Shown here: piece after piece, positions 16,383 through 42,174 of the stretch | Layout: every line of letters starts with the position of its first letter | Position numbering within the stretch: position 1 is the stretch's first letter | Source: a virus | Direction: 5' to 3' (one strand) | IMG/VR virus record: IMGVR_UViG_3300026183_000827 | Length of the DNA: 64,000 bases | The notes under the pieces: generated by a model | The model's database searches: none | The model's input: only the letters and a program-made list of their open reading frames with translations | Told to the model about the DNA's origin: nothing | Made by a program: the position numbers and the translations under genes

Positions 16383-19055
16383 ATGCCATACGTTGATGCG
16401 ATGTTCGATCGTGATCAAGATATTATACGTGTCGTAGAACGCCGTGACGGCAAAAGACACTATACAGAATATCCTGCAAAATATACATTTTACTATGAGG
16501 ATCCAAGAGGCAAGTACAAAAGTGTGTACGGCGATCCTCTTACACGCATTGTCTGTAAGAACACAAAAGACTTTCGCAAAGAAGTTGCTATAAACAAAAG
16601 CAAGAAATTGTTCGAAAGCGACATCAATCCAATCTTTCAATGTTTAAGTGAACACTATCTCAATCAAGATGCTCCTAAACTAAACATTGCGTTCTTTGAT
16701 ATCGAGACGGACTTTGATCCAGAGCGTGGGTTTGCTGATCCAGCAGACCCATTTATGCCCATTACATCTATAAGTGTATACTTACAGTGGATGGAAACAA
16801 TGGTATGTCTTGCTGTTCCACCCAAAACACTCACAATGGAGCAGGCAAAAGTAGAACTTGAAGGCATTGAAAATGTAATGCTGTTTGAGAAAGAAGGTGA
16901 CATGATTGACACGTTCTTAACACTGATTGAGGATGCTGATATTTTATCAGGTTGGAACAGTGAAGGTTATGATATCCCATATACTGTAAACAGAACAAGC
17001 CGTGTGTTATCTAAAGATGACACAAGACGTTTTTGTTTGTGGGGACAGTTGCCTAAGAAGCGTGAATATGAAAAATACGGAAAGCAAGCAGTTACATTTG
17101 ATCTAGTAGGTCGTGTACACTTAGACTCATTAGAACTATATCGCAAGTACACATATGAAGAACGTCACTCATATCGCTTGGATGCAATTGGTGAAATTGA
17201 AGTAGGCGAAAACAAAGTGCCATATGAAGGCACACTGGATCAGTTGTACAACAATGACTTCCGCAAGTTTATTGAATATAACATTCAGGATACTGCACTG
17301 CTAGACAAACTGGACAAGAAGCTACGCTTTATTGATCTAAGCAATAGCATTGCACACGAGAACACTGTGTTACTACAGACTACAATGGGTGCTGTTGCTG
17401 TTACAGAGCAAGGTATTATCAACGAAGCACACAACAGAGATTTGCGAGTACCTAACCGTCCAAAGCGTGATGACACAGAAAGCACACAAGCAGCAGGTGC
17501 GTATGTTGCGTTTCCTAAAAAAGGTTTGCACAAGTATATTGGTTCAATGGATTTGAATTCACTGTATCCATCAGTAATTCGTGCATTGAATATGGCTCCG
17601 GAAACTATTATAGGACAGATACGTCCTGAAATTACAGATGCTCGTGTACATGAAGATATGACACTAAAGAAAAAGTCATTTGCAGGTAGTTGGGAAGGAC
17701 GCTTTAATGTTGAAGAATACGACATAGTTATGGAGAAGCGCAAAGATGTTGCACTTACTGTTGATTGGGAAGATGGACGTTCAGACGTACTAAGTGGTGC
17801 AGAAATTTATCAACTTATTTTTGACAGTCAAATGCCATGGATGTTGAGTGCAAATGGCACAATCTTTACAACAGAGTTTGAAGGTGTTATTCCAGGTATT
17901 CTAAAGCGTTGGTATGCAGAACGTAAAGAACTACAAAAGAAACTTAAAAAAGCCAAAGACGCAGGTCTTGATGCGGAAATTGAGTATTGGGACAAACGAC
18001 AATTGGTTAAGAAAATTAATCTTAACAGTCTATATGGTGCTATTCTCAATCCTGGTTGTCGTTTCTTTGATAAACGCATTGGCCAGTCTACTACACTAAC
18101 AGGTAGACAAATTGTTAAGCATATGAGTGCAGAAGTTAACAAAGTTATTACAGGCGAATATGATCATGTAGGCAAAAGTGTTATCTATGGCGATACTGAT
18201 TCTGTGTATTTTAGTGCATGGCCTGCTCTCAAAGATGATGTAGAATCAGGCAAACTTGACTTTAATATTGACAAGTGTATTGCACTATATGACCAAGTGT
18301 GTGAACAAGCAAACACAACATTTCCAGACTTTATGGTGCGAGCATTTCACTGTCCAAAAACAAGAAGTGATGTTATTGCCGCAGGTAGAGAAATTGTTGC
18401 ACAAAGTGGACTGTATATTACTAAGAAGCGTTATGCGGCATTGGTAATTGATAATGAAGGATTCCGCACAGACGGTGACGGCAAGCCAGGCAAAGTAAAA
18501 GCAATGGGCTTGGATCTGCGTAGATCAGATACTCCTGTGTTTATGCAGAAGTTCCTGAGTGAATTGCTGCTAATGGTGCTTACTGATGTCCCACAAGAAG
18601 ATGTGCTACAGCGTATCACAGAATTCCGCAAAGAGTTTGAACAGCGTCCGGGATTTGAAAAGGGTTCGCCAAAACGTGCTAATAAAATTGGACACTATCA
18701 ACGTCTTGAAGAAAAGCAAGGTAAAGCAAATATGCCTGGACACGTAAGAGCAAGCATTAACTGGAACACACTCAAGCGTATGAACGGTGACAAGTATTCG
18801 CAAGAGATTGTAGATGGTATGAAAGTTATCGTTTGTAAACTCAAACCAAATCCACTAGGTTATACTAGTGTAGCATATCCAACAGATGAACTACGTTTGC
18901 CAGAGTGGTTCAAAGAACTTCCGTTTGATGATGCAGCAATGGCAGAAACAATTATTGATAACAAACTAGACAACTTGATCGGTGTGCTAAATTATCCTCT
19001 AGAAGATACAAAGCAACACAACACCTTCTCAAGTTTATTTGATTTTGGAGACTAG
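16383..19055 (+). CDS. Family B DNA polymerase (T4 gp43-like)
   Basis: ExoI FDIET, ExoII GWNSEGYD, ExoIII YNIQD; motif A DLNSLYPS, motif B KINLNSLYG, motif C YGDTDS. Confidence 0.97.
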   Translation: MPYVDAMFDRDQDIIRVVERRDGKRHYTEYPAKYTFYYEDPRGKYKSVYGDPLTRIVCKNTKDFRKEVAINKSKKLFESDINPIFQCLSEHYLNQDAPKLNIAFFDIETDFDPERGFADPADPFMPITSISVYLQWMETMVCLAVPPKTLTMEQAKVELEGIENVMLFEKEGDMIDTFLTLIEDADILSGWNSEGYDIPYTVNRTSRVLSKDDTRRFCLWGQLPKKREYEKYGKQAVTFDLVGRVHLDSLELYRKYTYEERHSYRLDAIGEIEVGENKVPYEGTLDQLYNNDFRKFIEYNIQDTALLDKLDKKLRFIDLSNSIAHENTVLLQTTMGAVAVTEQGIINEAHNRDLRVPNRPKRDDTESTQAAGAYVAFPKKGLHKYIGSMDLNSLYPSVIRALNMAPETIIGQIRPEITDARVHEDMTLKKKSFAGSWEGRFNVEEYDIVMEKRKDVALTVDWEDGRSDVLSGAEIYQLIFDSQMPWMLSANGTIFTTEFEGVIPGILKRWYAERKELQKKLKKAKDAGLDAEIEYWDKRQLVKKINLNSLYGAILNPGCRFFDKRIGQSTTLTGRQIVKHMSAEVNKVITGEYDHVGKSVIYGDTDSVYFSAWPALKDDVESGKLDFNIDKCIALYDQVCEQANTTFPDFMVRAFHCPKTRSDVIAAGREIVAQSGLYITKKRYAALVIDNEGFRTDGDGKPGKVKAMGLDLRRSDTPVFMQKFLSELLLMVLTDVPQEDVLQRITEFRKEFEQRPGFEKGSPKRANKIGHYQRLEEKQGKANMPGHVRASINWNTLKRMNGDKYSQEIVDGMKVIVCKLKPNPLGYTSVAYPTDELRLPEWFKELPFDDAAMAETIIDNKLDNLIGVLNYPLEDTKQHNTFSSLFDFGD

Positions 19056-19056
19056 T

Positions 19057-19635
19057 GTGACTAAAAGAATATATTCACATGAAATTGGTAAATGTACAAA
19101 AGTTTATAATAACGCTCTAGTATATATTCCAAAAAATGCATCTACTCTTTTACGAAATTGGTGTCAAAAGCAGACAGATACTAATATAAGCGATTCTAAT
19201 TATTTAGATTTTGAAGTTGACAAATATTATGTACTTATACGAGATCCTTTTGATAGATGGGTAAGCGGAGTAACAGAGTATTATTATAGAAATAAATTTC
19301 AAGTAGAACATATATTAGATCGTATAGAAATGATAGAATTTGACGAGCATACTACTCCACAAAATCAATTTTTAAATTTTGATTATACTAAAAATACTGT
19401 TTTTGTACCTATGGATAGAAAGGGAATAGGTTATTTAAATAATAAATTTTTAAAATATCCTCATCATCCTATAAACAAATATAATTCTAAAAGTAGCATA
19501 AGAAAAATAAAATTTAAAAATTTATTGTTAAAAAAAATACAAGAACAGCCTAGTTTAAAAGATAAAGTAATAGAATTTTATAAACAAGACTATGAAATTA
19601 TAGAAAATTACTTTGATAGGATTTCTATCTTATGA
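19057..19635 (+). CDS. Sulfotransferase family protein
   Basis: 5'-PSB loop YIPKNAST, 3'-PB RDPFDRWVSG, HTTPQ, YKQDY; GTG start after GGAG. Confidence 0.75.
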   Translation: MTKRIYSHEIGKCTKVYNNALVYIPKNASTLLRNWCQKQTDTNISDSNYLDFEVDKYYVLIRDPFDRWVSGVTEYYYRNKFQVEHILDRIEMIEFDEHTTPQNQFLNFDYTKNTVFVPMDRKGIGYLNNKFLKYPHHPINKYNSKSSIRKIKFKNLLLKKIQEQPSLKDKVIEFYKQDYEIIENYFDRISIL

Positions 19636-20021
19636 CAGAACACGAACAAATGATAAAAGACGAGTACAAAGAGACATCTAGAGAAAATCGTGCGTCTCAG
19701 CTTGCGGCAGAATTGTCAAAAGAACGTAAACGTCTTAAACAAGAGCTTGCAGAACTACAACACGAAGTTGAAGATCTAACACCTACAACACCTACTGGTA
19801 CAGTAGACTGGTATGTAAAATGGGTAAGTATGGTACTTGCTGTAATAGGTGTATTTTCAATTAGTGCAGGATTTACTATGTATGGACAAATAGCATATAT
19901 TCTTAGTTCAATAGGCTGGGTATTTGTAGGTATGCAATGGAGTGATAGAGCAATTATGATAGGATCTAGTATTAGCGGCACAGCAGTTGCTATGAATCTA
20001 GTCCAAGGACTAACACAATGA
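19632..20021 (+). CDS. Coiled-coil plus three-TM membrane protein
   Basis: Hydrophobic C-terminal half similar in pattern to 16109..16324. Confidence 0.7.
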   Translation: MTEHEQMIKDEYKETSRENRASQLAAELSKERKRLKQELAELQHEVEDLTPTTPTGTVDWYVKWVSMVLAVIGVFSISAGFTMYGQIAYILSSIGWVFVGMQWSDRAIMIGSSISGTAVAMNLVQGLTQ

Positions 20022-20125
20022 AAATAAAAGTAGAAGTAGAATTTGATACAGAAAAAACACAAGACGAAGAACTAATGCAAAAGCTATTAGAACTTCTTGA
20101 AGAATTAAGGGAGCAGTTAGAATGA
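20018..20125 (+). CDS. Small hypothetical protein (35 aa, MKIKVEVEFDT...)
   Basis: ATGA overlaps at both ends. Confidence 0.6.
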   Translation: MKIKVEVEFDTEKTQDEELMQKLLELLEELREQLE

Positions 20126-20568
20126 AAGTAGGATTTACTTGTTCAACTTTTGATTTGCTACACGCAGGTCATGTACAAATGTTACGAGAAGCAAAAGATC
20201 AGTGTGATTATTTAATATGCGGATTACAAGTAGATCCAAACTTAGATAGATCTGAGAAGAACTCTCCTATACAAACTATTGTTGAACGTTACACACAACT
20301 CAAAGCAGTTGGTTACGTAGATGAAATTATTCCGTATGGTACTGAAAGAGACCTAGAAGATATCTTGACAATGTATCATATTGATGTTAGAATATTAGGA
20401 GAAGAGTATAGAGACAAAACGTTTACCGGTAGAGCTATATGTGCTAAACGTGGAATTGAACTATATTTTAATAAACGTGATCATAGATTTTCATCTAGCG
20501 ATCTAAGAGCAAGAGTTGCAGAAAGACATACACATGGGAATGAATTCAGTCGGCAGAAAACTAAGTGA
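20122..20568 (+). CDS. tagD: Glycerol-3-phosphate cytidylyltransferase (TagD-like)
   Basis: TFDLLHAGH (HxGH), VDEIIPY, R...SSSDLR. Confidence 0.8.
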   Translation: MKVGFTCSTFDLLHAGHVQMLREAKDQCDYLICGLQVDPNLDRSEKNSPIQTIVERYTQLKAVGYVDEIIPYGTERDLEDILTMYHIDVRILGEEYRDKTFTGRAICAKRGIELYFNKRDHRFSSSDLRARVAERHTHGNEFSRQKTK

Positions 20569-20707
20569 CGAAGATCAAAAATTAGTTGATGAGTATTTAA
20601 AAAAAGGTGGGACTATTAAAAAAGGTGTAAGTGGTCAACGAACCGAAGATATTGAATTTAAAAACGGATTTTACGGTAAACGTAAAAAACAAAGTAAGGC
20701 AGAGTAA
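20534..20707 (+). CDS. Small hypothetical protein
   Basis: VDEYLKKGGTIKK motif; start moved to ATG 20534. Confidence 0.6.
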   Translation: MGMNSVGRKLSDEDQKLVDEYLKKGGTIKKGVSGQRTEDIEFKNGFYGKRKKQSKAE

Positions 20708-20709
20708 CA

Positions 20710-20850
20710 ATGAAGTATTTTTTTATATTATTAGCATTTATCTTAGGATGGATTGCAGGAACATATACACATCCTTATGAACAATGCAAACGTGTGTATG
20801 TTATAGCCGAAGATATTGGCGAATGCGTTTGGCTTAAGGAAGATCTTTGA
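20710..20850 (+). CDS. Small secreted/membrane protein (46 aa)
   Basis: MKYFFILLAFILGWIAG... hydrophobic N-terminus; fills the gap. Confidence 0.55.
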   Translation: MKYFFILLAFILGWIAGTYTHPYEQCKRVYVIAEDIGECVWLKEDL

Positions 20851-21014
20851 TGTGGACACTTTGGATTGTTAGCACTATTATCGGAAGTGCAGAACCTAAA
20901 TACACTCGCTATGATACATATGAAACTAAAATGGCTTGCCAAATAGAGTGGCATCTTGTTACTATGGATTTTACTGAAGACGAAGTAGCGTATTGTGAAG
21001 GACCAGATGAATAA
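20850..21014 (+). CDS. Small hypothetical protein (54 aa)
   Basis: MWTLWIVSTIIG...; TGATG coupling. Confidence 0.55.
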   Translation: MWTLWIVSTIIGSAEPKYTRYDTYETKMACQIEWHLVTMDFTEDEVAYCEGPDE

Positions 21015-21714
21015 ATTTATTTTTGATGTAGACGGAACACTAACTCCTAGTAGAGGAAAGATAGATAAAGAATTTGCAGCATGGTTTGAGCATTTTGCAA
21101 CACATAATGCTTGCTATTTTGTAACCGGATCTGATAAGATAAAAACAGTTGAGCAAATAGGTTTACCGATTTATAATCTCGCTATTAGAGTTTATAATTG
21201 CAACGGTAATGATGTTTGGGAACAGAACGTAAATGTTCGTACAAATGAATGGATACTACCTGAAGATGCACATGCATATTTGAGTGACGAACTTTGTGCA
21301 AGTGCATTTCCTTTGCGTACAGGATTACACTTTGAACATCGGCCAGGTATGTGTAATTTTAGTGTTGTAGGACGCAATGCTACACAAAAACAACGTGCAG
21401 AGTATGTAACCTGGGATAAAGATTTTGACGAACGTGTTTATATTGCTCATAACTTTAATCAACTGTTTCCAGAGCTTGAAGCAAAAGTAGGTGGCGAAAC
21501 AGGAATTGATATTGCACCAAAAGGAGCAGACAAAAGTCAAATTTTAAATGACTTTGATAAAGATGATGTTATTGTGTTCTTTGGCGATGCAATGCACCAA
21601 AACGGTAACGATTATCCATTAGCACAGGCTAATATAAAAGGAGAAAATTATCATGTGCAAGATTGGAAAGACACATGGAGGAAATTAAATGAAAATTTTA
21701 ATAACAGGTCATAA
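21007..21714 (+). CDS. HAD-superfamily (eukaryotic-type) phosphomannomutase
   Basis: FDVDGTLT, VTGSD, NFSVVGR, GGETGIDI, FFGD...GNDY. Confidence 0.85.
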   Translation: MNKFIFDVDGTLTPSRGKIDKEFAAWFEHFATHNACYFVTGSDKIKTVEQIGLPIYNLAIRVYNCNGNDVWEQNVNVRTNEWILPEDAHAYLSDELCASAFPLRTGLHFEHRPGMCNFSVVGRNATQKQRAEYVTWDKDFDERVYIAHNFNQLFPELEAKVGGETGIDIAPKGADKSQILNDFDKDDVIVFFGDAMHQNGNDYPLAQANIKGENYHVQDWKDTWRKLNENFNNRS

Positions 21715-22414
21715 AGGATTTATAGGCACACAGCTTTGTAAGTTCTTAAAAGACTACGATATTATAGGTCTTGATGTAAAAGAACATGAAGATCAAGATA
21801 TACTAACTTGCGAATTACCTGATGTAGATATGGTTATACACCTTGCTGGTATAGGCGGTGTTAGAGAAAGCATGGACAATCCAAAACGCTATTGGTATAA
21901 TAATGTAGAAGGCACAAAACGTATACTAGAAAGATATAAAAATATTCGTGTATTAGTTGCTGGATCCAGTTCGCAATACGAACCACATCTTAATCCTTAT
22001 GCTGCAAGCAAAAATATAATAGAATACATTCCTCACTCTAATGTTTGTTTTATGCGATTTCATACTGTTTACGGTGATATTCCTAGAGCAAATATGTTTT
22101 TTGACAAACTGTTAAACAATAAGCTTGAATATGTTACTAATCATGAAAGAGATTTTATACACATAGAAGATTTGTGCAATGCTATTGGAATGATTATGAA
22201 CGACAATAGAATACAAGGTCCTATTGATATTGGCACCGGAACTTGTGTAAAAATTTCAAATATAAGACCAGATTTGCCTATTCGCCTAAATACACCGGGG
22301 GAAAGACAAAGGACACAAGCTAATATTATGAAATTGTCAAGTTTAGGTTGGAAACCAAAACACACTGTAAAAGAATTTTTAAAAAATAAAGGTTTCTTGT
22401 ATGAAGAAATTTGA
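21689..22414 (+). CDS. NAD-dependent epimerase/dehydratase
   Basis: TGHKGFIG, HLAG, SSS, YAASK. Confidence 0.9.
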   Translation: MKILITGHKGFIGTQLCKFLKDYDIIGLDVKEHEDQDILTCELPDVDMVIHLAGIGGVRESMDNPKRYWYNNVEGTKRILERYKNIRVLVAGSSSQYEPHLNPYAASKNIIEYIPHSNVCFMRFHTVYGDIPRANMFFDKLLNNKLEYVTNHERDFIHIEDLCNAIGMIMNDNRIQGPIDIGTGTCVKISNIRPDLPIRLNTPGERQRTQANIMKLSSLGWKPKHTVKEFLKNKGFLYEEI

Positions 22415-22955
22415 TGCAGTTTTGTTAGTTGATTGTTGGACTCCGAATTTTTGGAAAGACGATGAAAGAGCAAGAAAACAAAAAAAGTTTCACAATAGTC
22501 TTTTATCATTTTTAAGAACACAAGAATTTGATCAAGTGTTATTTGCAACAAAAGGCTTACCTGAAACCCAAACTGATCCTCGTTTAAAATATAAATTACA
22601 TAGCAAAACAAAATCTAATAGCGAATTACATATTGAAGATATTGTTTCGTATTACGATTTGTACAAAAATTTGCAAGATAAAAGTAATATACTTTTAGGT
22701 GGCGCAGCATGGCAAATGTGTGTTCACGGAAATCATATAGGATTGTATGAATTAATGGATGAAAAAAATCTTACAATTCTTTCACATCCTTCTATGGTAG
22801 ATAGTTTTATTGACGACGAAGAGCCTGTTACTAAACAAGACTTTGAAAATGATTGGATGATTACATGGTTCGAACGTGGCGATGGTTTTTATCATGCCAG
22901 TCATAGAAAGCATATAACAAAGTCTTTTAGAAAAATTGATGTTGACAAAACATAA
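22401..22955 (+). CDS. Hypothetical protein, possibly isochorismatase/cysteine hydrolase-like
   Basis: LLVDCW and GGAAWQMCV motifs. Confidence 0.45.
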   Translation: MKKFDAVLLVDCWTPNFWKDDERARKQKKFHNSLLSFLRTQEFDQVLFATKGLPETQTDPRLKYKLHSKTKSNSELHIEDIVSYYDLYKNLQDKSNILLGGAAWQMCVHGNHIGLYELMDEKNLTILSHPSMVDSFIDDEEPVTKQDFENDWMITWFERGDGFYHASHRKHITKSFRKIDVDKT

Positions 22956-22970
22956 AAAATGTAATATAAT
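22942..22970 (+). promoter_or_regulatory. Consensus sigma70-like promoter for the clamp-dpdA operon
   Basis: TTGACA-N17-TATAAT. Confidence 0.85.
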
Positions 22971-22995
22971 AAATTAAATCAATGGAGAAATACAA

Positions 22996-23724
22996 ATGAA
23001 AGATATTTTACAAGACGTAGTAGCACATACTCATGCACTAGGATTTCTTAGTCTAGTTAAAGTTAGCAACGACGAAGGCACAGCAATTGATTCAATGGCA
23101 GAAGACCGTAGTGTTATTTTGTCAGCAGAAACACATTCACCCGTAGCAGAGTTTGTAGGCACATTTGGTATGCCTAACTTAGATAAACTTGCATTGCATT
23201 TAAAAAATCCAGAGTACAAAGACAATGCAAAAATTGATGTAGTACAAGCAGAACGCAACGGCGAAACTATTCCAACACACATTCACTTTGAAAATGCAGC
23301 AGGCGATTTTGAAAATGATTACCGCTTTATGAATAAAGCAATCATTGAAGAAAAACTAAAAACTGTTAAGTTCAAAGGCGCAAGTTGGAATGTAACACTA
23401 CAACCTAGTGTAGCAAGCATTGCACGTATGAAGCTCATGAGTGCAGCACATAGTGAAGAGCCTACATTCAATGTTAAAACTGTAGACGGTAACTTAGTAT
23501 TTTCGTTTGGTGATGCTAGTACACACGCAGGTGAGTTTGTATTCCAACACGGTGTAGAAGGTGCGCTACAACACATCTGGAGTTGGCCAGTAGCGCAGGT
23601 ACAAAGTATTTTGAGCTTAGACGGCGATTTGACCATGAGCATTTCAGATCAAGGTGCTATGAAGATTAGCGTAAACTCAGGTATGGCAACATACGATTAC
23701 ATCCTACCAGCACAGAGTAAGTAA
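22996..23724 (+). CDS. Putative DNA polymerase sliding clamp (gp45/PCNA-like)
   Basis: 242 aa with two-domain clamp-like pattern, C-terminal ISDQGAMKI...YDYILPA; near DNA polymerase. Confidence 0.7.
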   Translation: MKDILQDVVAHTHALGFLSLVKVSNDEGTAIDSMAEDRSVILSAETHSPVAEFVGTFGMPNLDKLALHLKNPEYKDNAKIDVVQAERNGETIPTHIHFENAAGDFENDYRFMNKAIIEEKLKTVKFKGASWNVTLQPSVASIARMKLMSAAHSEEPTFNVKTVDGNLVFSFGDASTHAGEFVFQHGVEGALQHIWSWPVAQVQSILSLDGDLTMSISDQGAMKISVNSGMATYDYILPAQSK

Positions 23725-23727
23725 AAT

Positions 23728-25275
23728 ATGCGCAAAGACTTAACTGCATCACAAAATGACTACGCTAGATTTCTCCCAGCACTAAGTGGCTTCTATGCCA
23801 CTTACGTGGGCAAACAGCGTTATAACGAATATGTAGATAAGTCACGTATCCCTTCAAACTTTACACACGGTGTAGAGAGTTTAAACTATCTTAACAAGCA
23901 AGAAGGTCAATTCCAGTACCAGTGGACACTTTACTCTGCAGGACACGCTGAACTAGACATTAACAAACATGCACCTAAAGAAGATATGGTGCGTAATAGA
24001 GATAGACAAAACTCTTGGATACTAGGCGACTCAGGTGGTTTCCAGATTGGTAAAGGCGTGTGGGAAGGTGACTGGAAGAATCCTAATTGTCCTAAAGCAC
24101 AAAAGAAAAGAGAACAAGTTCTCCGTTGGATGGATGCTTATATGGACTATGGTATGATCCTTGATATTCCTGCCTGGGTATGTCGCTCGCCTGCGGGTAG
24201 AGAAGCAACTGGTATTACTAGTTATATGGAAGCTGTTGAAGGCACATACATTAACAATGACTACTGGATTGCTAATCGTACAGGTGCTTGTAAGTTCTTA
24301 AATGTTCTACAGGGTGAGAATCACGCTGAAGCAGATGACTGGTATGATCGTATGAAAAAGTACTGTGATCCTAAGCAGTATCCAGACAATCACTTTAATG
24401 GTTGGGCAATGGGTGGACAGAATATGTGTGATGTACATCTAGTGCTTAAACGTATTGTAACTATGCATTTTGACGGTTTGCTAGAAAAAGGCATTCACGA
24501 TGTAATGCACTTCTTAGGAACATCAAAGCTAGAGTGGGCTTGTTTGCTTACTGACATTCAACGTGCTGTACGGAAAAACTATAATGAAAACTTTACTATT
24601 ACCTTTGACTGTGCTAGTCCTTTCCTCGCAACCGCGAACGGACAGATCTACATTCAAAACGAAACTGAAGACAGAAGCAAATGGACGTATCGTATGGTGC
24701 CGTCAGTTGACGATAAGAAATATGCTACAGACAACCGTATCTTTAGAGACGCTGTTATATCAGATGGGATATTTAAAAACTTTGAAGACTCACCGCTTAC
24801 CGCTGAACTCAAAGTATCAGACGTTTGCACTTATGCTCCAGGAGACTTAAATAAAATAGGTAAAGAAGGAAAGACATCGTGGGATAGTTTTAGTTACGCT
24901 ATCCAAATGGGACATAATGTGTGGAGCCACATAAATGCAGTGCAAGAAGCTAACAGACAATACGACAATGGATGCATTCCGAGAATGCTTGTCCAAGAAC
25001 GTTTTGATAGAATCTTGTTCAAAGATGTTGTGAACGAAATTTTTGCAAAAGACAATAAAGACGCTGCTCTTGCACTAATTGAAGAATATTCTAAGTTTTG
25101 GATGGCTATTCCAGGTACACGAGGTGCAGTAGGTAAGAAAACTGTAAACGCTAGTACACACTTTAATGCGCTTTTTGACGTAGAAGAACCAGAGACAGAA
25201 AATGATCACGAAGATGGTTTATTCACAGAAGCAGAGGAACATAAATTGGAGGAAATGGAGAATGAGCAACTATGA
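23728..25275 (+). CDS. dpdA: TGT-fold guanine transglycosylase, DpdA-like (7-deazaguanine insertion into DNA)
   Basis: GDSGGFQ, ILDIP, VLQG, GWAMGG, HFLG, FDCAS catalytic motifs; no CxCxxC Zn site; folE and queE nearby. Confidence 0.75.
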   Translation: MRKDLTASQNDYARFLPALSGFYATYVGKQRYNEYVDKSRIPSNFTHGVESLNYLNKQEGQFQYQWTLYSAGHAELDINKHAPKEDMVRNRDRQNSWILGDSGGFQIGKGVWEGDWKNPNCPKAQKKREQVLRWMDAYMDYGMILDIPAWVCRSPAGREATGITSYMEAVEGTYINNDYWIANRTGACKFLNVLQGENHAEADDWYDRMKKYCDPKQYPDNHFNGWAMGGQNMCDVHLVLKRIVTMHFDGLLEKGIHDVMHFLGTSKLEWACLLTDIQRAVRKNYNENFTITFDCASPFLATANGQIYIQNETEDRSKWTYRMVPSVDDKKYATDNRIFRDAVISDGIFKNFEDSPLTAELKVSDVCTYAPGDLNKIGKEGKTSWDSFSYAIQMGHNVWSHINAVQEANRQYDNGCIPRMLVQERFDRILFKDVVNEIFAKDNKDAALALIEEYSKFWMAIPGTRGAVGKKTVNASTHFNALFDVEEPETENDHEDGLFTEAEEHKLEEMENEQL

Positions 25276-25471
25276 AACAGAAGAAGATAAACTTCGAGCT
25301 CATTACGAGGAATTAGAGAGAAAACATAGAGAACTTGACAACGAGCTAATCGAACGTTATAATAATCAAACAGTAACAGACGAAGTTCGTAGAATGAAAA
25401 CTATGAAACTCTATTTAAAAGACGAAATGCATCGTATTAACGCTTACTTGATACAAAAAGGCTTAGAATGA
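25262..25471 (+). CDS. DUF465/YdcH-like small coiled-coil protein
   Basis: LERKHRELD...MKTMKLYLKDEM; start moved to ATG 25262. Confidence 0.7.
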   Translation: MSNYETEEDKLRAHYEELERKHRELDNELIERYNNQTVTDEVRRMKTMKLYLKDEMHRINAYLIQKGLE

Positions 25472-25998
25472 AAAGAGATTACGAAAACGGTGAACACGAC
25501 GATGTTGTGTTCTTTACAGGCATTGAAGTAGAACGTACACCTGCTTACGGCAAGAAAACACTATTTGTAACTGGCGTTCAAGATATTGAAACAGTGTTTG
25601 AACATTTTGCAACACAAGAATGTGAGCATATTTTCTTTGGTGCTAATCATAGTTTTAATCCTGGCGTTAATTTTCCAAAAGATGCAGATGCATGGGAAGA
25701 ATGGGAAAACATGATTGAATACTTTTTAGAAAAGGGTGTACCTTGTACACTAGATGTTCCGTTCAGTCACGCAGAAGCATTACTAGAAACTACAATGATT
25801 GAAACAGATTTGTTTATTCCACAAATCCGCATTCCACTTCCTTACATCAAGCAATATAATTATAACACTATGATTAAAATCGATGACAGAGATTTTAAAG
25901 CAACTAATCCAGGTGTTTGGTGTCATAGACTACACAATCTAATGGACGATAAAAAATTCACTGATTGGAGTGAATACGAACTTGACAAACCTCTATAA
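25468..25998 (+). CDS. Hypothetical protein in the deazaguanine cluster
   Basis: 176-aa coupled ORF (GIEVE, HIFFGANHSF, KIDD...NPGVWCH). Confidence 0.75.
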   Translation: MKRDYENGEHDDVVFFTGIEVERTPAYGKKTLFVTGVQDIETVFEHFATQECEHIFFGANHSFNPGVNFPKDADAWEEWENMIEYFLEKGVPCTLDVPFSHAEALLETTMIETDLFIPQIRIPLPYIKQYNYNTMIKIDDRDFKATNPGVWCHRLHNLMDDKKFTDWSEYELDKPL

Positions 25999-26707: not shown

Positions 26708-27792
26708 TGACAATTTATATCGTAGACATTGAAGCAGTAGACACACGTTACACAAAGCAGTGGAAGGACTTTCTTCCTACGCAACTGCAACATGCTACGA
26801 ATAATGAAGTTGTTGTAATTAGTGGAGGGGAAACGCCTCAGGCAACTACGCCTGGGGCTTTTCTTAACTTTGGTGGAACCAATGTGTACAAGAGCAAACA
26901 GCTCGAACAAATTGGTGAAATGTTTTGCAAAGGAGAAATTAAAGATGGAGATTATTTCCTATATACGGATGCGTGGAACCCAACTGTTATCCAGTTGCGC
27001 TACATGGCTGAACTCCTTGGGGTCGACATTAGAATTGGTGGTCTTTGGCATGCTGGTTCTTATGATCCACATGATTTCCTAGGTAGGCTCATAGGCGATA
27101 AGCCTTGGGTCAGACATGCTGAAAAAAGCATGTACTACACATACGATAACAACTTCTTTGCAACAGATTTTCATATCGATATGTTTGTTGATACTATTTT
27201 AGATAAAAATAATAATGATCACTGGACAACTGAAGAAGTAATAGATTTTTACGAAACAACTCAACGTGTAGGTTGGCCTATGGAGTATCTAAAAGAAAGC
27301 CTTGTTACTTACAGCGGTATGGACAAACGCAATCTTATACTCTTTCCGCATCGCATTGCTCCAGAAAAACAAGTTGATATCTTCCGTGATCTATCAGAGC
27401 AACTTCCTGAATATGAATTTGTAGTGTGCCAAGAACGTGAACTTACTAAGAACGAATATCACAACTTGCTAGGCGAAGCTAAAATGGTGTTCTCAGCTAA
27501 CTTGCAGGAAACACTTGGTATTAGTTGGTATGAAGGCGCACTTGTAAATGCTATTCCAATGGTTCCTGATAGACTGAGTTATACAGAAATGGCACTGCCT
27601 GAGTTTAAGTATCCTAGTGTGTGGACTGAAGACTTTGCTAGTTATCGCAAACATAGAGGAGAAGTTGTTGCTAAGATTCGTGACTATATGGAAAACTATG
27701 ACGATTACCTTGTAAGTTTAGACAAGCAACGAACTAAACTAAACAAAGATTTCTTTAGCGGAGCAGCATTGTATGACGCAATCAAAGGATGA
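26707..27792 (+). CDS. GT-B (GT4-like) glycosyltransferase
   Basis: FPHRIAPEK and ETLGISWYEG (Ex7E) nucleotide-sugar-binding motifs. Confidence 0.8.
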   Translation: MTIYIVDIEAVDTRYTKQWKDFLPTQLQHATNNEVVVISGGETPQATTPGAFLNFGGTNVYKSKQLEQIGEMFCKGEIKDGDYFLYTDAWNPTVIQLRYMAELLGVDIRIGGLWHAGSYDPHDFLGRLIGDKPWVRHAEKSMYYTYDNNFFATDFHIDMFVDTILDKNNNDHWTTEEVIDFYETTQRVGWPMEYLKESLVTYSGMDKRNLILFPHRIAPEKQVDIFRDLSEQLPEYEFVVCQERELTKNEYHNLLGEAKMVFSANLQETLGISWYEGALVNAIPMVPDRLSYTEMALPEFKYPSVWTEDFASYRKHRGEVVAKIRDYMENYDDYLVSLDKQRTKLNKDFFSGAALYDAIKG

Positions 27793-28186
27793 TACATTTA
27801 CTATAGATATTAGTGATTTAAAGTTAGATGATATCTTAGATACTTCTGATAATATTACACTCGATCTAGGTGATATTAACATGGGTACTACTACAACGTA
27901 TTGGGCAGGCGATAGTGTAACTGATATAACTATGTCTACTGGCGATGGTACATTTACACTAACAAGCAATGATACCATTACAATAGACGGGCATAATACT
28001 GAGTTTAACACAGATTGGATTTATAATTATAACCAAATTGACCCAGATAAAGTTGAACGTATGTGTAAACAGTATCCAGCACTAGAAAAAGTTTGGCGCA
28101 ACTTTAAAAGCGTATACGATATGGTTAAACAAGATTACGAAGGTAAGAAAAAAGCAGGAGAAATAGACGATGACCTTCCGTTCTAA
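27773..28186 (+). CDS. Hypothetical protein
   Basis: T/D-rich N-terminus, YPALEKVW...YDMVK C-terminus. Confidence 0.7.
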   Translation: MTQSKDDTFTIDISDLKLDDILDTSDNITLDLGDINMGTTTTYWAGDSVTDITMSTGDGTFTLTSNDTITIDGHNTEFNTDWIYNYNQIDPDKVERMCKQYPALEKVWRNFKSVYDMVKQDYEGKKKAGEIDDDLPF

Positions 28187-31277: not shown

Positions 31278-31961
31278 TTGAGCAAAGCAGAACAAATTAA
31301 AGCAAAACTAGAAGATGCTGGTATCCGTTACTGGGCAGGCGATAATATTTCAGAAGTCCTACAAAACGGTGACAAAGAAGCACTTATTGATGATGCTACA
31401 CTAGCATTTGAAGGTGTACTTGATGCACTACTAATTGATCGTCATAACGATCCTAACTCTAAAGGCACAGCAAAACGTCTTGCTAAAATGTACTTTAATG
31501 AGATTATGGCAGGACGTTACGATCCTGCACCAGATGCAACAGCATTTCCAAACGACTCAGATGAACGTTACGAAGGTATGCTTGTAGTGCGTTCTGAACT
31601 TAAAAGTATGTGTTCACATCATCACCAGCCAGTAGCAGGTGTTGCATATATTGGTATTATTGCCGCAGACAAATTAATTGGCTTATCTAAATACACACGT
31701 ATTGCACAGTGGTGTGCTAGACGTGGTACACTGCAAGAAGAACTTGCAAACGACATCGCACGTGAAATCCAAAAAGCAACTGGTGCAGAACACTTAGGTG
31801 TTTACATTCAAGCAACACACGGTTGCTGTGAGAATCGCGGTATTATGGCACATAGTTCATTGACACAAACAACTGTACTTAAAGGTGCGTTTAAAGATGA
31901 TCCCGGTACAAAGAAAGAGTTCTTTGACAACATTAAACTACAACAGGAGTTCAGCTGCTAA
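31278..31961 (+). CDS. folE: GTP cyclohydrolase I
   Basis: SMCSHHHQP, GLSKYTR, LQEEL, HGCCENRG; TTG start after GGAGA. Confidence 0.95.
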   Translation: MSKAEQIKAKLEDAGIRYWAGDNISEVLQNGDKEALIDDATLAFEGVLDALLIDRHNDPNSKGTAKRLAKMYFNEIMAGRYDPAPDATAFPNDSDERYEGMLVVRSELKSMCSHHHQPVAGVAYIGIIAADKLIGLSKYTRIAQWCARRGTLQEELANDIAREIQKATGAEHLGVYIQATHGCCENRGIMAHSSLTQTTVLKGAFKDDPGTKKEFFDNIKLQQEFSC

Positions 31962-32071
31962 TGGGTGATTATATTGCAGTGCGCATAGCACAAGTGTTTA
32001 TTATAGCAGTGTTTGTAATGGGTATGATAGGTTTAGGAATTGAATTGTACACAGGAAGGTTGCCACTATGA
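31961..32071 (+). CDS. Small single-TM peptide (36 aa) between folE and queE
   Basis: MGDYIAVRIAQVFIIAVFVMGMIGLGIELYTGRLPL; coupled at both ends. Confidence 0.55.
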   Translation: MGDYIAVRIAQVFIIAVFVMGMIGLGIELYTGRLPL

Positions 32072-32961
32072 AGCTACGTTATTCAGAAGCATTTTACAGT
32101 GTACAGGGCGAAGGCAAGTTTGTTGGAGTCCCTAGTGTGTTCTTAAGAACTTTTGGTTGTAACTTTCGTTGTATGAACTTTGGCACAGGTGAAACAAAAG
32201 ATCGTTGGACACTACACAAAGAAGGTAAAAAATACAACGATGAAGTTGCAGAACTAATTGCAAAAGATGTTCACAAGACTACAAAAGAGTTTAACGACTT
32301 GCCTATCATCCACACAGGCTGTGACACATATGCAAGTATCTATCCAGAGTTTAAACACTTTAATAAACTTGCAGAAGTAGACGAAGTGGTTGAACATCTT
32401 CTTTCACTTACTCCAGAAGGTAAGTGGACAATGGATAATGGTCAAGACATCCATTTGATATTAACAGGTGGAGAACCTTTGTTAGCGTGGCAAAAGCTCT
32501 ACATAGATTTATTTGAGCATCCAAAGATGCAGGACTTAAAAAATGTTACATTTGAAACAAACACTACACAACGTCTACATGACGATTTCTACAACTATCT
32601 CAACAATCAAACAAGATTTACAGTTACGTGGTCTTGTTCCCCAAAACTTAGTGTTTCAGGAGAACCTTGGGATACTGCTATACTGCCTGCTGTCGCTAGT
32701 CAGTATAGCCATATTAACGGCAGTGACATTTATCTTAAGTTTGTTGTCGCTACTCAAGATGATTTTGACGAAGTTAGCAGGGCTGTGGACGCTTACAAAA
32801 GTGCCGGGCTACAATGTCCAGTATATCTTATGCCGTTGGGTGGACGCAGTGAAGAATATTCCCTCAACGTTAAAGACGTGGCAGAAGCCTGTATGGCGAG
32901 AGGATGGCGATTCACTCCAAGACTCCACATATCGCTATTCGGGAATGCCTGGGGGACTTAG
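32068..32961 (+). CDS. queE: 7-carboxy-7-deazaguanine synthase (radical SAM)
   Basis: FYSVQGEG, FLRTFGCNFRC...GCDT, LTGGEP, ETN, SPKL, RLH. Confidence 0.92.
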   Translation: MKLRYSEAFYSVQGEGKFVGVPSVFLRTFGCNFRCMNFGTGETKDRWTLHKEGKKYNDEVAELIAKDVHKTTKEFNDLPIIHTGCDTYASIYPEFKHFNKLAEVDEVVEHLLSLTPEGKWTMDNGQDIHLILTGGEPLLAWQKLYIDLFEHPKMQDLKNVTFETNTTQRLHDDFYNYLNNQTRFTVTWSCSPKLSVSGEPWDTAILPAVASQYSHINGSDIYLKFVVATQDDFDEVSRAVDAYKSAGLQCPVYLMPLGGRSEEYSLNVKDVAEACMARGWRFTPRLHISLFGNAWGT

Positions 32962-33518: not shown

Positions 33519-34502
33519 ATGAGCACTTATATTTTAGTAGATACAGCAAACACTTTCTTTAGAGCTCGTCATGTAGTGCGTGGCGATTTGGATACTAAAG
33601 TAGGTATGGCTCTACACATTACACTTAACAGTGTAAAGAAAGCATGGCAAGACTTTAATGCAGATCATGTTGTATTCTGTTTAGAAGGACGCAGTTGGCG
33701 TAAGGACTATTATGAGCCTTACAAGCGTAACAGACAAGAAACTCGTGATGCAATGACTCCTGCACAGCAAGAAGAAGATACTGTGTTTTGGGAAATCTTT
33801 GATGAATTCAAAGACTTTATTGGCACAAAAACTAACTGTACTATGATGCGTCATCCGCAATTAGAAGCAGATGATTTGATTGCTGGTTGGGTACAATCAC
33901 ATCCTAATGACAATCATGTTATTATTAGCACAGACGGTGACTTTGCACAATTGATTGCTCCTAACGTAAAACAGTACAACGGTGTTAGCAATACAACTAT
34001 TACACACGAAGGCTACTTTGACGACAAAGGTAAACCTGTTGTAGATAAGAAAACTAAAGAGCCTAAAGGTGCTCCTGATCCGCAATGGCTACTATTTGAA
34101 AAATGTATGCGAGGTGATACAAGTGACAATGTTTTCTCTGCTTATCCAGGTGTTAGAAAAAAAGGTACAAAGAACAAAGTTGGTCTTATAGAAGCGTTTG
34201 AAGATAAAAGTACAAAAGGCTTCAACTGGAATAATATGATGCTACAGCGTTGGGTTGATCATAATGGTGATGAGCACCGTGTACTAGACGATTACAATCG
34301 CAACGTTACATTGTGTGATTTGTCTGCACAACCTACAGAGATTAGAGAGATAATTAATAACACTATTGCAGAAGTAGAACCTAAGAACATATCACAGGTT
34401 GGTATGCGCCTTATGAAGTTTTGTGCCAAGTGGGATATGCAACGAATTGCAGACCAAGCAGCATCTTTTGCAGAACCTTTACAAGCGAGATACCCTAAAT
34501 GA
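33519..34502 (+). CDS. rnh: 5'-3' exonuclease / T4 RNase H-like flap endonuclease
   Basis: LVD, SWRK...YKRNR, EADDLI, STDGDFAQL, GDTSDNV. Confidence 0.9.
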   Translation: MSTYILVDTANTFFRARHVVRGDLDTKVGMALHITLNSVKKAWQDFNADHVVFCLEGRSWRKDYYEPYKRNRQETRDAMTPAQQEEDTVFWEIFDEFKDFIGTKTNCTMMRHPQLEADDLIAGWVQSHPNDNHVIISTDGDFAQLIAPNVKQYNGVSNTTITHEGYFDDKGKPVVDKKTKEPKGAPDPQWLLFEKCMRGDTSDNVFSAYPGVRKKGTKNKVGLIEAFEDKSTKGFNWNNMMLQRWVDHNGDEHRVLDDYNRNVTLCDLSAQPTEIREIINNTIAEVEPKNISQVGMRLMKFCAKWDMQRIADQAASFAEPLQARYPK

Positions 34503-36518: not shown

Positions 36519-37607
36519 ATGGAAACCGTAGCAACTCGTACAGTTACACCAAAAACTGCTAAATCATCAGTTAAGCATGCACTAACAAAACAACGTCCTA
36601 TCTTCCTTTGGGGACCTCCAGGTATTGGTAAGTCTGATATTGTTGCGCAAATTACAAACAGTTTGCCTAACTCACATTTGATCGATGTTCGTTTGTCACT
36701 ATGGGATCCTACTGACATTAAAGGTATTCCGTACTTTGATTCTAATACTAGCACAATGCAATGGGCACCGCCTGCAGAACTTCCTTCAGAAGAGTTTGCG
36801 GCACAATACGACAATATTGTATTGTTCCTAGACGAAATGAACTCTGCGGCTCCTGCTGTACAGGCAGCGGCTTATCAACTTATTCTTAACCGCAAGGTTG
36901 GTACTTATAAATTGCCAGACAATGTTATGATTGTTGCGGCAGGTAACCGTGAAGCAGACAAAGGTGTTACTTACCGTATGCCTGCTCCGCTTGCTAATCG
37001 CTTTATCCACTTGGAAATGACTGTATCATTTGATGACTGGTTTGAGTGGGCTGTTGATAATAACATTCATTCAGATGTTGTAGGTTATTTGCAATTTAGT
37101 AAACAGGATCTATATGATTTTGATCCGAAATCATCTAGTCGTTCTTTTGCAACGCCTCGTTCGTGGTCATTTGTATCAGAATTACTTGAAGATAAAATTG
37201 ACGAAAACACCACTACAGATCTAGTTTCGGGTGCAGTAGGTGAAGGACTAGCTGTTAAGTTTATGGCACATCGCAAAATTGCTTCGGATATGCCTAATCC
37301 AACAGATATCTTAGCAGGTAAAGTCAAAGACTTGCATAACAAAGAAATTAGTGCAATGTATTCACTTACAGTATCTCTTTGCTATGAGTTAAAAGAGGCG
37401 TCAGACAAGAACGATAAAAAGTTTGACAACAAAGTTAACAACTTTCTGCGTTTTGCAATGGATAACTTTGATACAGAACTAGTTGTAATGGGAATTAAAC
37501 TTGCACTAACACAGTATTCACTACCCATTGATCCAGATGAAGTTGAATGTTTTGATGAATTTCACGATCGTTATGGCAAATATATTAAGGCAGCACAGAC
37601 TGCTTAA
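36519..37607 (+). CDS. MoxR-like AAA+ ATPase
   Basis: GPPGIGKS, LFLDEMN, AAGNR, LANRF, TPRSW. Confidence 0.9.
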   Translation: METVATRTVTPKTAKSSVKHALTKQRPIFLWGPPGIGKSDIVAQITNSLPNSHLIDVRLSLWDPTDIKGIPYFDSNTSTMQWAPPAELPSEEFAAQYDNIVLFLDEMNSAAPAVQAAAYQLILNRKVGTYKLPDNVMIVAAGNREADKGVTYRMPAPLANRFIHLEMTVSFDDWFEWAVDNNIHSDVVGYLQFSKQDLYDFDPKSSSRSFATPRSWSFVSELLEDKIDENTTTDLVSGAVGEGLAVKFMAHRKIASDMPNPTDILAGKVKDLHNKEISAMYSLTVSLCYELKEASDKNDKKFDNKVNNFLRFAMDNFDTELVVMGIKLALTQYSLPIDPDEVECFDEFHDRYGKYIKAAQTA

Positions 37608-37610
37608 GAT

Positions 37611-37655
37611 ACAAAACGAACGGTCTCTTTTGAGGCCGTTTGGCTTTGTTTTTTT
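37611..37655 (+). terminator. Rho-independent terminator
   Basis: CGAACGGTCTC-TTTT-GAGGCCGTTTG stem followed by a T run. Confidence 0.75.
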
Positions 37656-37657
37656 GG

Positions 37658-37686
37658 TTGACAAATTCATTAAATACTGTTATACT
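37658..37686 (+). promoter_or_regulatory. Sigma70-like promoter with extended -10
   Basis: TTGACA-N17-TATACT, with TG at the extended -10 position. Confidence 0.8.
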
Positions 37687-37723
37687 ATATGTATAGAAAA
37701 TGGTAAACAGAAGGGCAAATGAA

Positions 37724-39052
37724 ATGGCTGTTTTAGTAAGCGAAAAAAATACTGCTAGTAAACTAAAAAACTGGCAACCTGATCCAAATATTACTCCTGA
37801 ACAACTAGAAGAAATGCGTGTTGAAGTATACGACCGCATTATTGTTGCACGAGTAGGTTTGTTATTACGTCACCCATTTTTTGGCAATATGGCAACTAGA
37901 TTAAAAATACTCGCTGCCGATGATTGGTGTCCTACTGCTGCCGTTGATGGCAAAAATCTTTACTACAACACTCAATTCTTTAATGCTATGAACAATAAAG
38001 AAATTGAGTTTGTTATTGCACACGAAATTTTGCACTGTGTATTTGATCACCTAGAACGTCGAAATTGGCAGGATCGTAACTTAGATCCTATGATTAGTAA
38101 CATTGCACAAGACTATATTGTAAACAATGTTTTGGTAAGAGACAAAATTGGTGAAAAACCTAGTATTGTTGATTGCTTTCAAGATTTTAAATACGATAAT
38201 TGGACTTCCGAAGAAGTATACGAAGATATCTTTAACAAGTATGACGAAGAACAGTTACGTCAATTAGGAGAATTGTTAGACGAACACCTTGATCCAGAAG
38301 AAGGCGATGGTGCAGCCGACGGCGATGCTGGCGAAGAAAAAGATGTAAATGGCAACGGTGTAAGCAAGAAAAAACCAAAGTATTCTAAAGAAGACTTACG
38401 TAAAATACGTGACGAAATTAAAGAAAATATGATTTCGGCAGCGCAAAGTGCTGGTGCAGGTAACGTTCCTGCAGGTGTTCAGCGTATGATCAAAGAGCTT
38501 ACTGAGCCTAAGATGAACTGGCGTCAACTGCTTCGTCAGCAAATCCAAAGTATTATTAAGCATGACTTTACTTTTTCTCGTCCTTCACGTAAAGGTTGGC
38601 ACGTAGGTGCTGTACTTCCAGGTCAAAACTTTGACGAAACAATTGACATTTGTTTGGCTCTTGATATGAGTGGTTCAATTGGCAATTCGCAAGCATCTGA
38701 TTTCTTAGGCGAAGTAAAAGGCATCATGGAAGAATTTAAAGATTATAATATTAAAATCTGGTGCTTTGACACTGCTGTATACAATGAACAAAGTTACAGT
38801 GCAGACGGTGGTGAAGACTTAATGGATTACGAAATTAAAGGCGGAGGCGGCACTGATTTTATGTGTAATTGGGAATATATGAAAGAAAACGACATTGTTC
38901 CTAAAAAGTTCATTATGTTCACAGACGGATATGCTTGGGATAGTTGGGGTGATCCTGACTATTGCGAATCAATCTTTTTAATTCACTCTAACCACGATCA
39001 AAATTTACAGGCACCGTTTGGTACTACCGTGCATTACGATAAGGCAGCATGA
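37724..39052 (+). CDS. DUF2201-type metallopeptidase-like plus vWA domain protein (MoxR partner)
   Basis: HEILH, MIDAS DMSGS, GGGGTDF, FTDG; start moved to ATG 37724. Confidence 0.88.
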   Translation: MAVLVSEKNTASKLKNWQPDPNITPEQLEEMRVEVYDRIIVARVGLLLRHPFFGNMATRLKILAADDWCPTAAVDGKNLYYNTQFFNAMNNKEIEFVIAHEILHCVFDHLERRNWQDRNLDPMISNIAQDYIVNNVLVRDKIGEKPSIVDCFQDFKYDNWTSEEVYEDIFNKYDEEQLRQLGELLDEHLDPEEGDGAADGDAGEEKDVNGNGVSKKKPKYSKEDLRKIRDEIKENMISAAQSAGAGNVPAGVQRMIKELTEPKMNWRQLLRQQIQSIIKHDFTFSRPSRKGWHVGAVLPGQNFDETIDICLALDMSGSIGNSQASDFLGEVKGIMEEFKDYNIKIWCFDTAVYNEQSYSADGGEDLMDYEIKGGGGTDFMCNWEYMKENDIVPKKFIMFTDGYAWDSWGDPDYCESIFLIHSNHDQNLQAPFGTTVHYDKAA

Positions 39053-42115: not shown

Positions 42116-42147
42116 ACCATAATAATTAATAATACTCCTTTGTGTTA

Positions 42148-42154
42148 ATAAATA
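42148..42154 (+). promoter_or_regulatory. T4-late-like promoter box ATAAATA for the desaturase operon
   Basis: Followed by GGAG SD and ATG 42175. Confidence 0.55.
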
Positions 42155-42174
42155 ATATACACATCGGAGCATTT

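Follow-up and report, generated by a model that had tools for sequence, protein, structure and literature searches.

A polymerase-like tail on a divergent DpdA-like enzyme points to probable sliding-clamp-tethered deazaguanine insertion in jumbo phages

We analyzed a 64,000-nucleotide stretch of viral DNA (IMG/VR record IMGVR_UViG_3300026183_000827; hereafter the window, 64 kb in full), in which the gene for a DpdA-like transglycosylase directly follows one for a sliding clamp. The DpdA-like protein carries near its C-terminus a close counterpart of the peptide that ends the phage's own DNA polymerase and, by analogy with phages T4 and RB69, we consider it probable (about 0.6) that the enzyme is a client of the sliding clamp on phage DNA, its modification being tied to replication. 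The window would then hold part of a jumbo-phage replication module, consisting of a polymerase, a PCNA-type clamp, and a DpdA-like enzyme transcribed with the clamp gene. The polymerase would hold the clamp via its hydrophobic-acidic C-terminal tail (TFSSLFDF), as T4/RB69 gp43 does; the DpdA-like enzyme, with its copy of the peptide (HFNALFDV) on a predicted disordered C-terminal extension, would bind phage-DNA-loaded clamps at the hydrophobic site that the polymerase uses; and the clamp would keep the enzyme on the newly made duplex while guanine is exchanged for a 7-deazaguanine supplied by the neighboring FolE/QueE pathway. The copy of the polymerase tail lies on a predicted disordered extension and the gene seems to be co-transcribed with that of the clamp; recruitment by the clamp is the most economical reading. 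The data themselves establish the folds, catalytic motifs, predicted tail disorder, motif conservation, likeness to each genome's own polymerase tail, near-exclusivity across whole genomes, and gene linkage; from them we infer the binding of the peptide to the clamp, DNA instead of tRNA as the substrate, the timing at the fork, and any part played in the selectivity or completeness of modification. The features concerned, with the basis of each assignment, are the following.

16383–19055, plus strand: family B DNA polymerase, RB69/T4 gp43-like, 890 amino acids (aa) (Pfam, PHROGs, nearest structures)
19023–19052, plus strand: polymerase tail TFSSLFDFGD, presumed clamp-binding peptide (sequence; role by T4/RB69 analogy)
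22942–22970, plus strand: sigma-70 consensus promoter-like site, 12/12 (TTGACA-17-TATAAT), preceding the clamp ATG (consensus match)
22996–23724, plus strand: PCNA/gp45-type sliding clamp, 242 aa (AlphaFold2 (AF2) model and Foldseek)
23728–25275, plus strand: divergent TGT/DpdA-like transglycosylase, 515 aa (AF2, Foldseek, conserved motifs)
25126–25218, plus strand: low-confidence (disordered) linker carrying the motif, residues 467–497 (predicted local distance difference test, pLDDT, below 50)
25162–25179, plus strand: FNALFD, polymerase-tail-like short linear motif in the DpdA-like protein (sequence, conservation)
25228–25260 (to 25272 when the last residues are included), plus strand: second conserved tail element at the extreme C-terminus, a predicted acidic amphipathic helix (KLEE.E.EQL / KLE-x-LEDEQL type)

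A preliminary description made from the sequence alone had noted the likeness of the two tails, and both lie where it placed them. The polymerase open reading frame (ORF) ends in HNTFSSLFDFGD before the stop, with FSSLFD encoded at 19026–19043 and F-G-D-stop at 19044–19055 (TFSSLFDFGD). In the DpdA-like protein, STH precedes F-N-A-L-F-D, whose codons span 25162–25179 (HFNALFD, residues 478–484), and the acidic tail claimed to follow is indeed there: 31 residues come after the motif, about half of them Asp or Glu. A short helix is predicted over residues 478–483, covering the motif. The polymerase matched DNA_pol_B (1.5e-36) and DNA_pol_B_exo1 (1.4e-18) in Pfam and phrog_262 (1.5e-197) in PHROGs, and RB69 gp43 chains were its closest solved structures. 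Because it is RB69-like, its tail was taken as a clamp ligand, which by homology with T4/RB69 gp43 is most likely. The T4 precedent invoked in the preliminary description proved sound: gp43, gp33, and gp55 all bind gp45 through hydrophobic-acidic C-termini that can replace one another, are attached by divergent, unstructured linkers, and still function when internalized, as in a gp55-gp33 fusion (PMC2988020).

The motif is conserved in both near and remote DpdA-like homologs and follows the tail of the polymerase encoded in the same genome. Close relatives were represented by 80 IMG/VR loci with DpdA-like proteins 75–98% identical; F..LF[DE][FW] was kept in 37/38 distinct polymerase tails and [FYW]..[LFM]F[DEQ] in 59/59 distinct DpdA-like homologs, while the acidic stretch beyond the motif differed in length and sequence. 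Many full-length relatives at 30–45% identity end in or near x-x-[LM]-F, and in lineages without the acidic extension the motif moves to the extreme C-terminus. Distant examples end in KLFDFGG, FKRLFDYA, NNLFDFS, FSDLFDEG, or TFDQLFSIQE, and mega-phage relatives in GLFDF, GLFEL, GLFA, or SLFDGL; the distant lineages' polymerase tails had [LM]F-x-[FW] in every one read. When the tails of 92 family representatives (50% clustering) were compared with shuffled tails of the same sequences, [LM]F occurred in 50 against 15.6 ± 3.4, h..[LM]F (h, hydrophobic) in 34 against 3.8, and F..[LM]F in 24 against 1.0. Within the window proteome, strict F..LFD was found three times, with 0.2 expected from shuffles (0/500 reached three), and near a C-terminus only in the polymerase and the DpdA-like protein. 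The conservation outweighs this last count, since the motif was chosen after the fact.

The second tail helix (residues 501–511; block-mean pLDDT 71 and 59 over 501–515) is kept across the close clade and can be made out in Pseudomonas phage PA5oct (DEKLTELEQGLDN) and in several distant representatives; lineages whose motif is terminal lack it. This helix might provide a further docking site, or else act in autoinhibition or as a DNA mimic.

In eight phage lineages the DpdA-like tail resembles the tail of the lineage's own polymerase, most clearly in Vibrio phage 2.275.O, and wherever the two proteins could be read from one genome both tails were of the type [LM]-F-[DSTG]-[FWV]. The tails are listed below; L numbers are our locus designations.

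Window: polymerase TFSSLFDFGD-stop; DpdA-like HFNALFDVEE, continuing
PA5oct: polymerase HFDSLFGW-stop; DpdA-like SFNSLFDVDA, continuing
Vibrio 2.275.O: polymerase NNTDLFDW-stop; DpdA-like NNNDLFGW-stop
L085: polymerase VNKMFTF-stop; DpdA-like MKLFDFGG-stop
L092: polymerase VNSMFSF-stop; DpdA-like HNLFDF-stop
L094: polymerase TFDNLFSFG-stop; DpdA-like MFDELFSVGE, continuing
L096–L104: polymerase TTFNDLFDF-stop; DpdA-like NLFDF[SDEN]-stop (e.g. NNLFDFS-stop)
Phosso: polymerase TTFNDLFTF-stop; DpdA-like VEGLF-stop

Scored at just the six positions flanking the LF anchor, the true pairings of the eight lineages gave 84, compared with 44 ± 18 for permuted pairings (P = 0.024), with the Vibrio and L094 pairs contributing most; the statistic is suggestive, not strong. 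A simple rule in which the first Phe covaries was rejected, being broken by the L096 lineage. The picture is clearer at the genome scale, where the tail is all but confined to the two proteins. Of all ORFs in the 349-kb Vibrio phage 2.275.O genome, just three end with LFxW: those of the polymerase, the DpdA-like protein, and a 74-aa product. PA5oct (287 kb) has the tail on its polymerase and its DpdA-like protein and otherwise on four ORFs that look spurious, including one of 224 aa that ends KLFTYKR, one of 289 aa whose match is interior, and short ones on the minus strand. The 74-aa Vibrio ORF is Cys-rich, ends SSLFEW (L130:4713–4937, plus strand; record positions 118713–118937), and has no PHROG match; having the only other C-terminus of this kind in the genome, it may be the third protein to use the shared partner.

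Similar tails were seen on further small ORFs. A 196-aa ORF directly after the DpdA-like gene (L067:11120–11710 and L069:11178–11768, plus strand) ends NRLFEFGA and has no family match; it was considered as a homolog of the window gene 25468–25998 and rejected, the two being non-homologous. In L088, a 140-aa ORF (2042–2464, plus strand) without a family match ends TTFNTLFDVVK, and the DpdA-like protein of the same fragment ends TMFNTLFQ. L088 also has, 1.3 kb before its DpdA-like gene, a gene for a clamp-loader-like AAA+ protein (phrog_1250/168); for an L088 ORF of 380 aa considered as a beta-type clamp, support was sought and not found.

The identification of both the clamp and the DpdA-like protein rests on fold comparison, because sequence-level searches gave none. 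For the 242-aa clamp protein there was no match in Pfam or among PDB sequences, and its one PHROG match, phrog_12062, is of unknown function. The clamp fold proposed for 22996–23724 in the preliminary description was recovered in an AF2 model built from 48 homologs (pLDDT 93.4; predicted template modeling score, pTM, 0.90). This model has a two-domain fold of about 240 residues, and its top Foldseek matches were all PCNA (probability 1.00; template modeling score, TM, 0.65–0.69); at least 500 matches had E ≤ 0.001, those listed being all PCNA at TM 0.60–0.69 on the query. Two of the conditions that would have refuted the preliminary description, loss of the motif in homologs and lack of a clamp fold here, were thus checked, and neither applied. 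Depositors annotated homologs as PCNA in phage PAC2 and as a beta clamp in Phosso, and the PA5oct homolog is labeled "structural protein" from virion mass spectrometry (L082).

The 515-aa DpdA-like protein had no match in Pfam, PHROGs, PADLOC, NCBIfam, or PDB sequences (phmmer), and a profile of its family did not reach TGT among PDB sequences. An AF2 model built from 92 diverse homologs (pLDDT 91.4, pTM 0.91) has a TGT-type TIM-barrel fold; its top 50 Foldseek matches in PDB were all Zymomonas mobilis TGT (probability 1.00, E ~1e-6), with a TM of ~0.5 normalized to the target. Catalytic-type motifs are present as GDSGGFQ (residues 100–106) and FDCASP (residues 293–298), these residues being equated with the TGT catalytic residues by motif resemblance rather than by residue-level superposition. 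DSGG[FY] was found in 87/91 diverse homologs; D101, S102, G103, G104, Q106, and D146 are near-invariant in the family, and H261, G264, and D294 fully invariant. The CxCxxC zinc motif of canonical TGT was absent from the 515-aa sequence, as judged by reading it. Thus, the name "DpdA-like" given in the preliminary description is justified by fold, motif, and genomic context, deazaguanine genes lying nearby. The modeled enzyme probably swaps guanine in DNA for a 7-deazaguanine, and its substrate would be DNA rather than tRNA.

The family is large and formally without annotation. A search of 1.8 billion cluster representatives returned 999 relatives, and in one search at least 7958 proteins matched the family among 8000 candidates scored. 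The TGT profile PF01702 found no match in PA5oct, Vibrio 2.275.O, or Phosso, and was present on 17% of members in one Atlas neighbor cluster. Matches to the family profile and to PF01702 were both lacking in the DpdA3 phage CP220; the DpdA-like protein reached neither phiST nor CP220 by tblastn at E ≤ 10; and hhalign of the CP220 candidates CPT_0116, 0135, and 0136 against the family gave a probability of 0.1. Since the family profile and PF01702 match nothing in CP220, the family may be a subfamily separate from DpdA3. Homologs P0163 and P0134 had no relatives among viral contigs, and P0244 none among genomes. P0134 (443 aa; L154, contig Ga0196905_1001661) is tail-less and adjoins two integrase genes; in its context, the sole tail-less one read, neither a clamp nor a family B polymerase gene was found within 8.4 kb, and it may represent a temperate or integrative-element version of the enzyme.

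The DpdA-like gene follows the clamp gene by 3 nucleotides, as had been claimed (clamp stop at 23724, DpdA-like ATG at 23728). As to the accompanying claim of a single promoter, a 12/12 site lies upstream of the pair and the next one (25335–25363) is past the DpdA-like stop, both being consensus matches only; weaker 9/12 matches between the two were found at 23288–23316, 23860–23887, and 25175–25203. A search for plus-strand terminator-like sites between the two 12/12 sites found none. Judged from these matches, the clamp and DpdA-like genes would be co-transcribed. A small ORF (25202–25471, plus strand; ATG in frame at 25262) extends over the 3' end of the DpdA-like gene in a different reading frame and is doubtful as a gene because the 25335–25363 site lies inside it.

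This arrangement is shared with relatives. The clamp gene is directly upstream of the DpdA-like gene in 78/78 close loci, and close upstream also in PA5oct, Vibrio 2.275.O, L085, L092, L094, and the L096 group; the gene order polymerase-clamp-TGT-like-Que recurs in PA5oct, Vibrio 2.275.O, and several metagenomic lineages. In the window, two candidate genes for 7-deazaguanine synthesis lie 6–7 kb downstream of the DpdA-like gene.

31278–31961, plus strand: GTP cyclohydrolase I (FolE), first step of 7-deazaguanine synthesis (PF01227 1e-38; phrog_2197 3e-44)
32068–32961, plus strand: QueE-like radical SAM enzyme (phrog_2076 7.8e-53)

The syntenic PA5oct gene of the QueE-like gene is annotated as 7-carboxy-7-deazaguanine synthase (QueE). 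Linked genes elsewhere include QueF, a "queuosine biosynthesis protein" gene, and FolE in Vibrio 2.275.O; QueC and FolE in L085 and L092; and FolE and PTPS in L094.

Several observations count against recruitment of the enzyme by the clamp. About 40% of family representatives have no clear [LM]F tail, and some are tail-less; in the window clade the motif sits 31 residues before the C-terminus and is not terminal. The covariation is modest (P ~0.02, n = 8) and driven by two or three lineages, and in the L096 lineage the polymerase has the first Phe while most DpdA-like tails are without it. Foldseek puts PCNA first for the 22996–23724 protein, a clamp loader was sought within the window and not found, and the window's FEN/RNase H homolog (33519–34502) is without such a tail. 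The assignment of DNA as substrate is itself indirect.

Three other explanations of the shared tail were weighed. It might bind another replisome partner, such as a single-strand-binding protein, helicase-primase, or clamp-loader subunit, or serve as a localization signal, so that polymerase and DpdA-like enzyme are co-recruited by other means than the clamp. The comparative data reveal a peptide common to two proteins and not its target, the Phosso DpdA-like gene adjoins primase and DnaB-like helicase genes rather than a clamp gene, and further small ORFs carry the same tail; nevertheless, we regard this explanation as unlikely, given that the polymerase is RB69-like, that the equivalent hydrophobic-acidic C-terminus in T4/RB69 is a clamp ligand, and that the clamp gene is the upstream neighbor in all the close loci and lies close upstream in the six other lineages named above. 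Bacterial clamp-binding pentapeptides are of the Qxx[LM]F or QL[SD]LF type, and the core x-x-[LM]-F resembles them, with tails such as NTDLF, VNKMF, FNDLF, and EGLF fitting x-x-x-[LM]-F. The tail might thus target the host beta clamp (DnaN) instead of the phage clamp, as could also be argued from L088, where the DpdA-like protein and the 140-aa ORF have matching tails and no PCNA-type clamp was seen within 12 kb. Against this, these phages have a clamp gene of their own next to that of the polymerase, the tails are without the leading Gln, and LF is followed by a [DSTG]-[FWV] pair, as in T4-type tails; moreover, L088 carries the clamp-loader-like gene, and therefore a phage clamp may lie outside this fragment. 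Targeting of DnaN is accordingly improbable in our estimate.

Least probable of all, and to be given very little weight, is that the two tails have no common function and that of the DpdA-like protein is enzyme-internal, for example as an autoinhibitory or DNA-mimic acidic tail. Hydrophobic-acidic tails are frequent, the motif was picked for the preliminary description after being seen, and the long acidic extension and second conserved helix of the window clade are unexplained by the clamp. Yet the tail enrichment lies many standard deviations above shuffles; the motif stays while linker residues diverge and is terminal where the acidic extension is missing; it mirrors what is peculiar to the polymerase tail of a lineage, such as the Trp at the very end in the Vibrio phage; and genome-wide the tail is nearly unique to the two proteins. 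Recruitment by the phage clamp thus remains our preferred reading, and its extension to the whole TGT-like family, with deazaguanine insertion coupled to replication in these jumbo phages, has in our view slightly better than even prospects.

Each part is of a known kind (DpdA-type transglycosylase, PCNA-type clamp, clamp-binding tail); new is their combination. The system shares with T4/RB69 an RB69-like polymerase, a PCNA/gp45 two-domain clamp fold, and, in gp43, gp33, and gp55, a short hydrophobic-acidic C-terminal peptide on a divergent unstructured linker, near-identical between the polymerase and the clamp's other clients in the same phage. It differs in that the client here would be a base-exchange enzyme rather than a transcription factor, and in that the window-clade peptide is internal, with 31 residues and an acidic helix after it; within the window we saw no tail-bearing gp33 or gp55 homolog. 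Among eukaryotes, DNMT1 and UNG2 are PCNA clients with PCNA-interacting protein (PIP) boxes that modify or repair DNA behind the fork. The proposed likeness is that of a DNA-modifying or base-excising enzyme held on the replication clamp via an h-x-x-aromatic-aromatic peptide; the enzyme families, the chemistry (base exchange here), the viral setting, and the lack of the PIP-box Gln set the present case apart.

DpdA is the signature protein of deazaguanine DNA modification; DpdA1–4 and bDpdA have been described, with guanine replacement ranging from <0.1% to 100% between subfamilies and DpdA3 replacing all G, and insertion is called "post-replication" without a targeting mechanism, neither a clamp nor PA5oct being mentioned (PMC10516641). 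The present family resembles bDpdA and DpdA1–DpdA4 in its TGT fold, its DSGG[FY]Q and FDC motifs, and its FolE/QueE/QueC/QueF linkage; it differs in being longer (~500 aa), in lacking the zinc motif, and in being missed by PF01702 and all hidden Markov model (HMM) libraries tried. Full-text literature searches that paired DpdA with "sliding clamp" or "PCNA" turned up no relevant paper. According to a preprint, the DNA of PA5oct is resistant to enzymes whose sites contain G, and a 7-deazaguanine is suspected, with the transglycosylase unnamed (PMC12191111); PA5oct encodes a DpdA-like homolog (EST35_0316) of 33% identity. Were the proposal true, the DpdA-like family would supply the missing transglycosylase of PA5oct-like Pseudomonas phages, whose DNA is apparently G-modified, and the clamp-binding tail would give a concrete mechanism for how DpdA enzymes find DNA. 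Clamps left on new phage DNA would allow processive, high-level replacement and confine it to phage DNA, extending the clamp "toolbelt" idea to DNA hypermodification, and no earlier description of a clamp-tethered DNA hypermodification enzyme would exist for viruses of bacteria. The number of deazaguanine-modified phages is probably underestimated, because the family is abundant in metagenomes yet invisible to current HMM libraries.

Other genes of the window and its relatives deserve mention. The PA5oct polymerase gene is interrupted by a Hef-like homing endonuclease gene (L082, PA5oct record 216595–222648). Between the polymerase and clamp genes of the window lie three sugar-nucleotide genes (20122–22414, plus strand), encoding a cytidylyltransferase-like or heptose-1-P adenylyltransferase-like protein, a phosphomannomutase-like protein, and an NAD epimerase/dehydratase; their products may go into a cell-surface pathway or into modifying the inserted base further. 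Two paralogous ORFs on the minus strand (50255–50992 and 52976–53623) end HCG-x-C-xx-C-x-ER-xx-AFG and have weak QueC/PP-loop matches (PF06508 8e-6; phrog_1550 ~1e-7); they belong to a long block of minus-strand genes, well away from the FolE/QueE cluster. The AAA+ gene at 36519–37607 was considered as a clamp loader and rejected as MoxR-like with a VWA partner gene: at 36519–39052 (plus strand), genes for a MoxR-like AAA+ ATPase (AAA_3/AAA_5) and then for a DUF2201 metallopeptidase/VWA protein form a MoxR-VWA pair. A 137-aa ORF (27773–28186, plus strand) without a Pfam or PHROG match ends GEIDDDLPF, an acidic tip classically found on single-strand-binding proteins of the bacterial type. Finally, two adjacent paralogous ORFs at 42142–43664 (plus strand; 259 and 248 aa), both matching phrog_35201, of unknown function, have a common C-terminal WWELDP-x-AWII.

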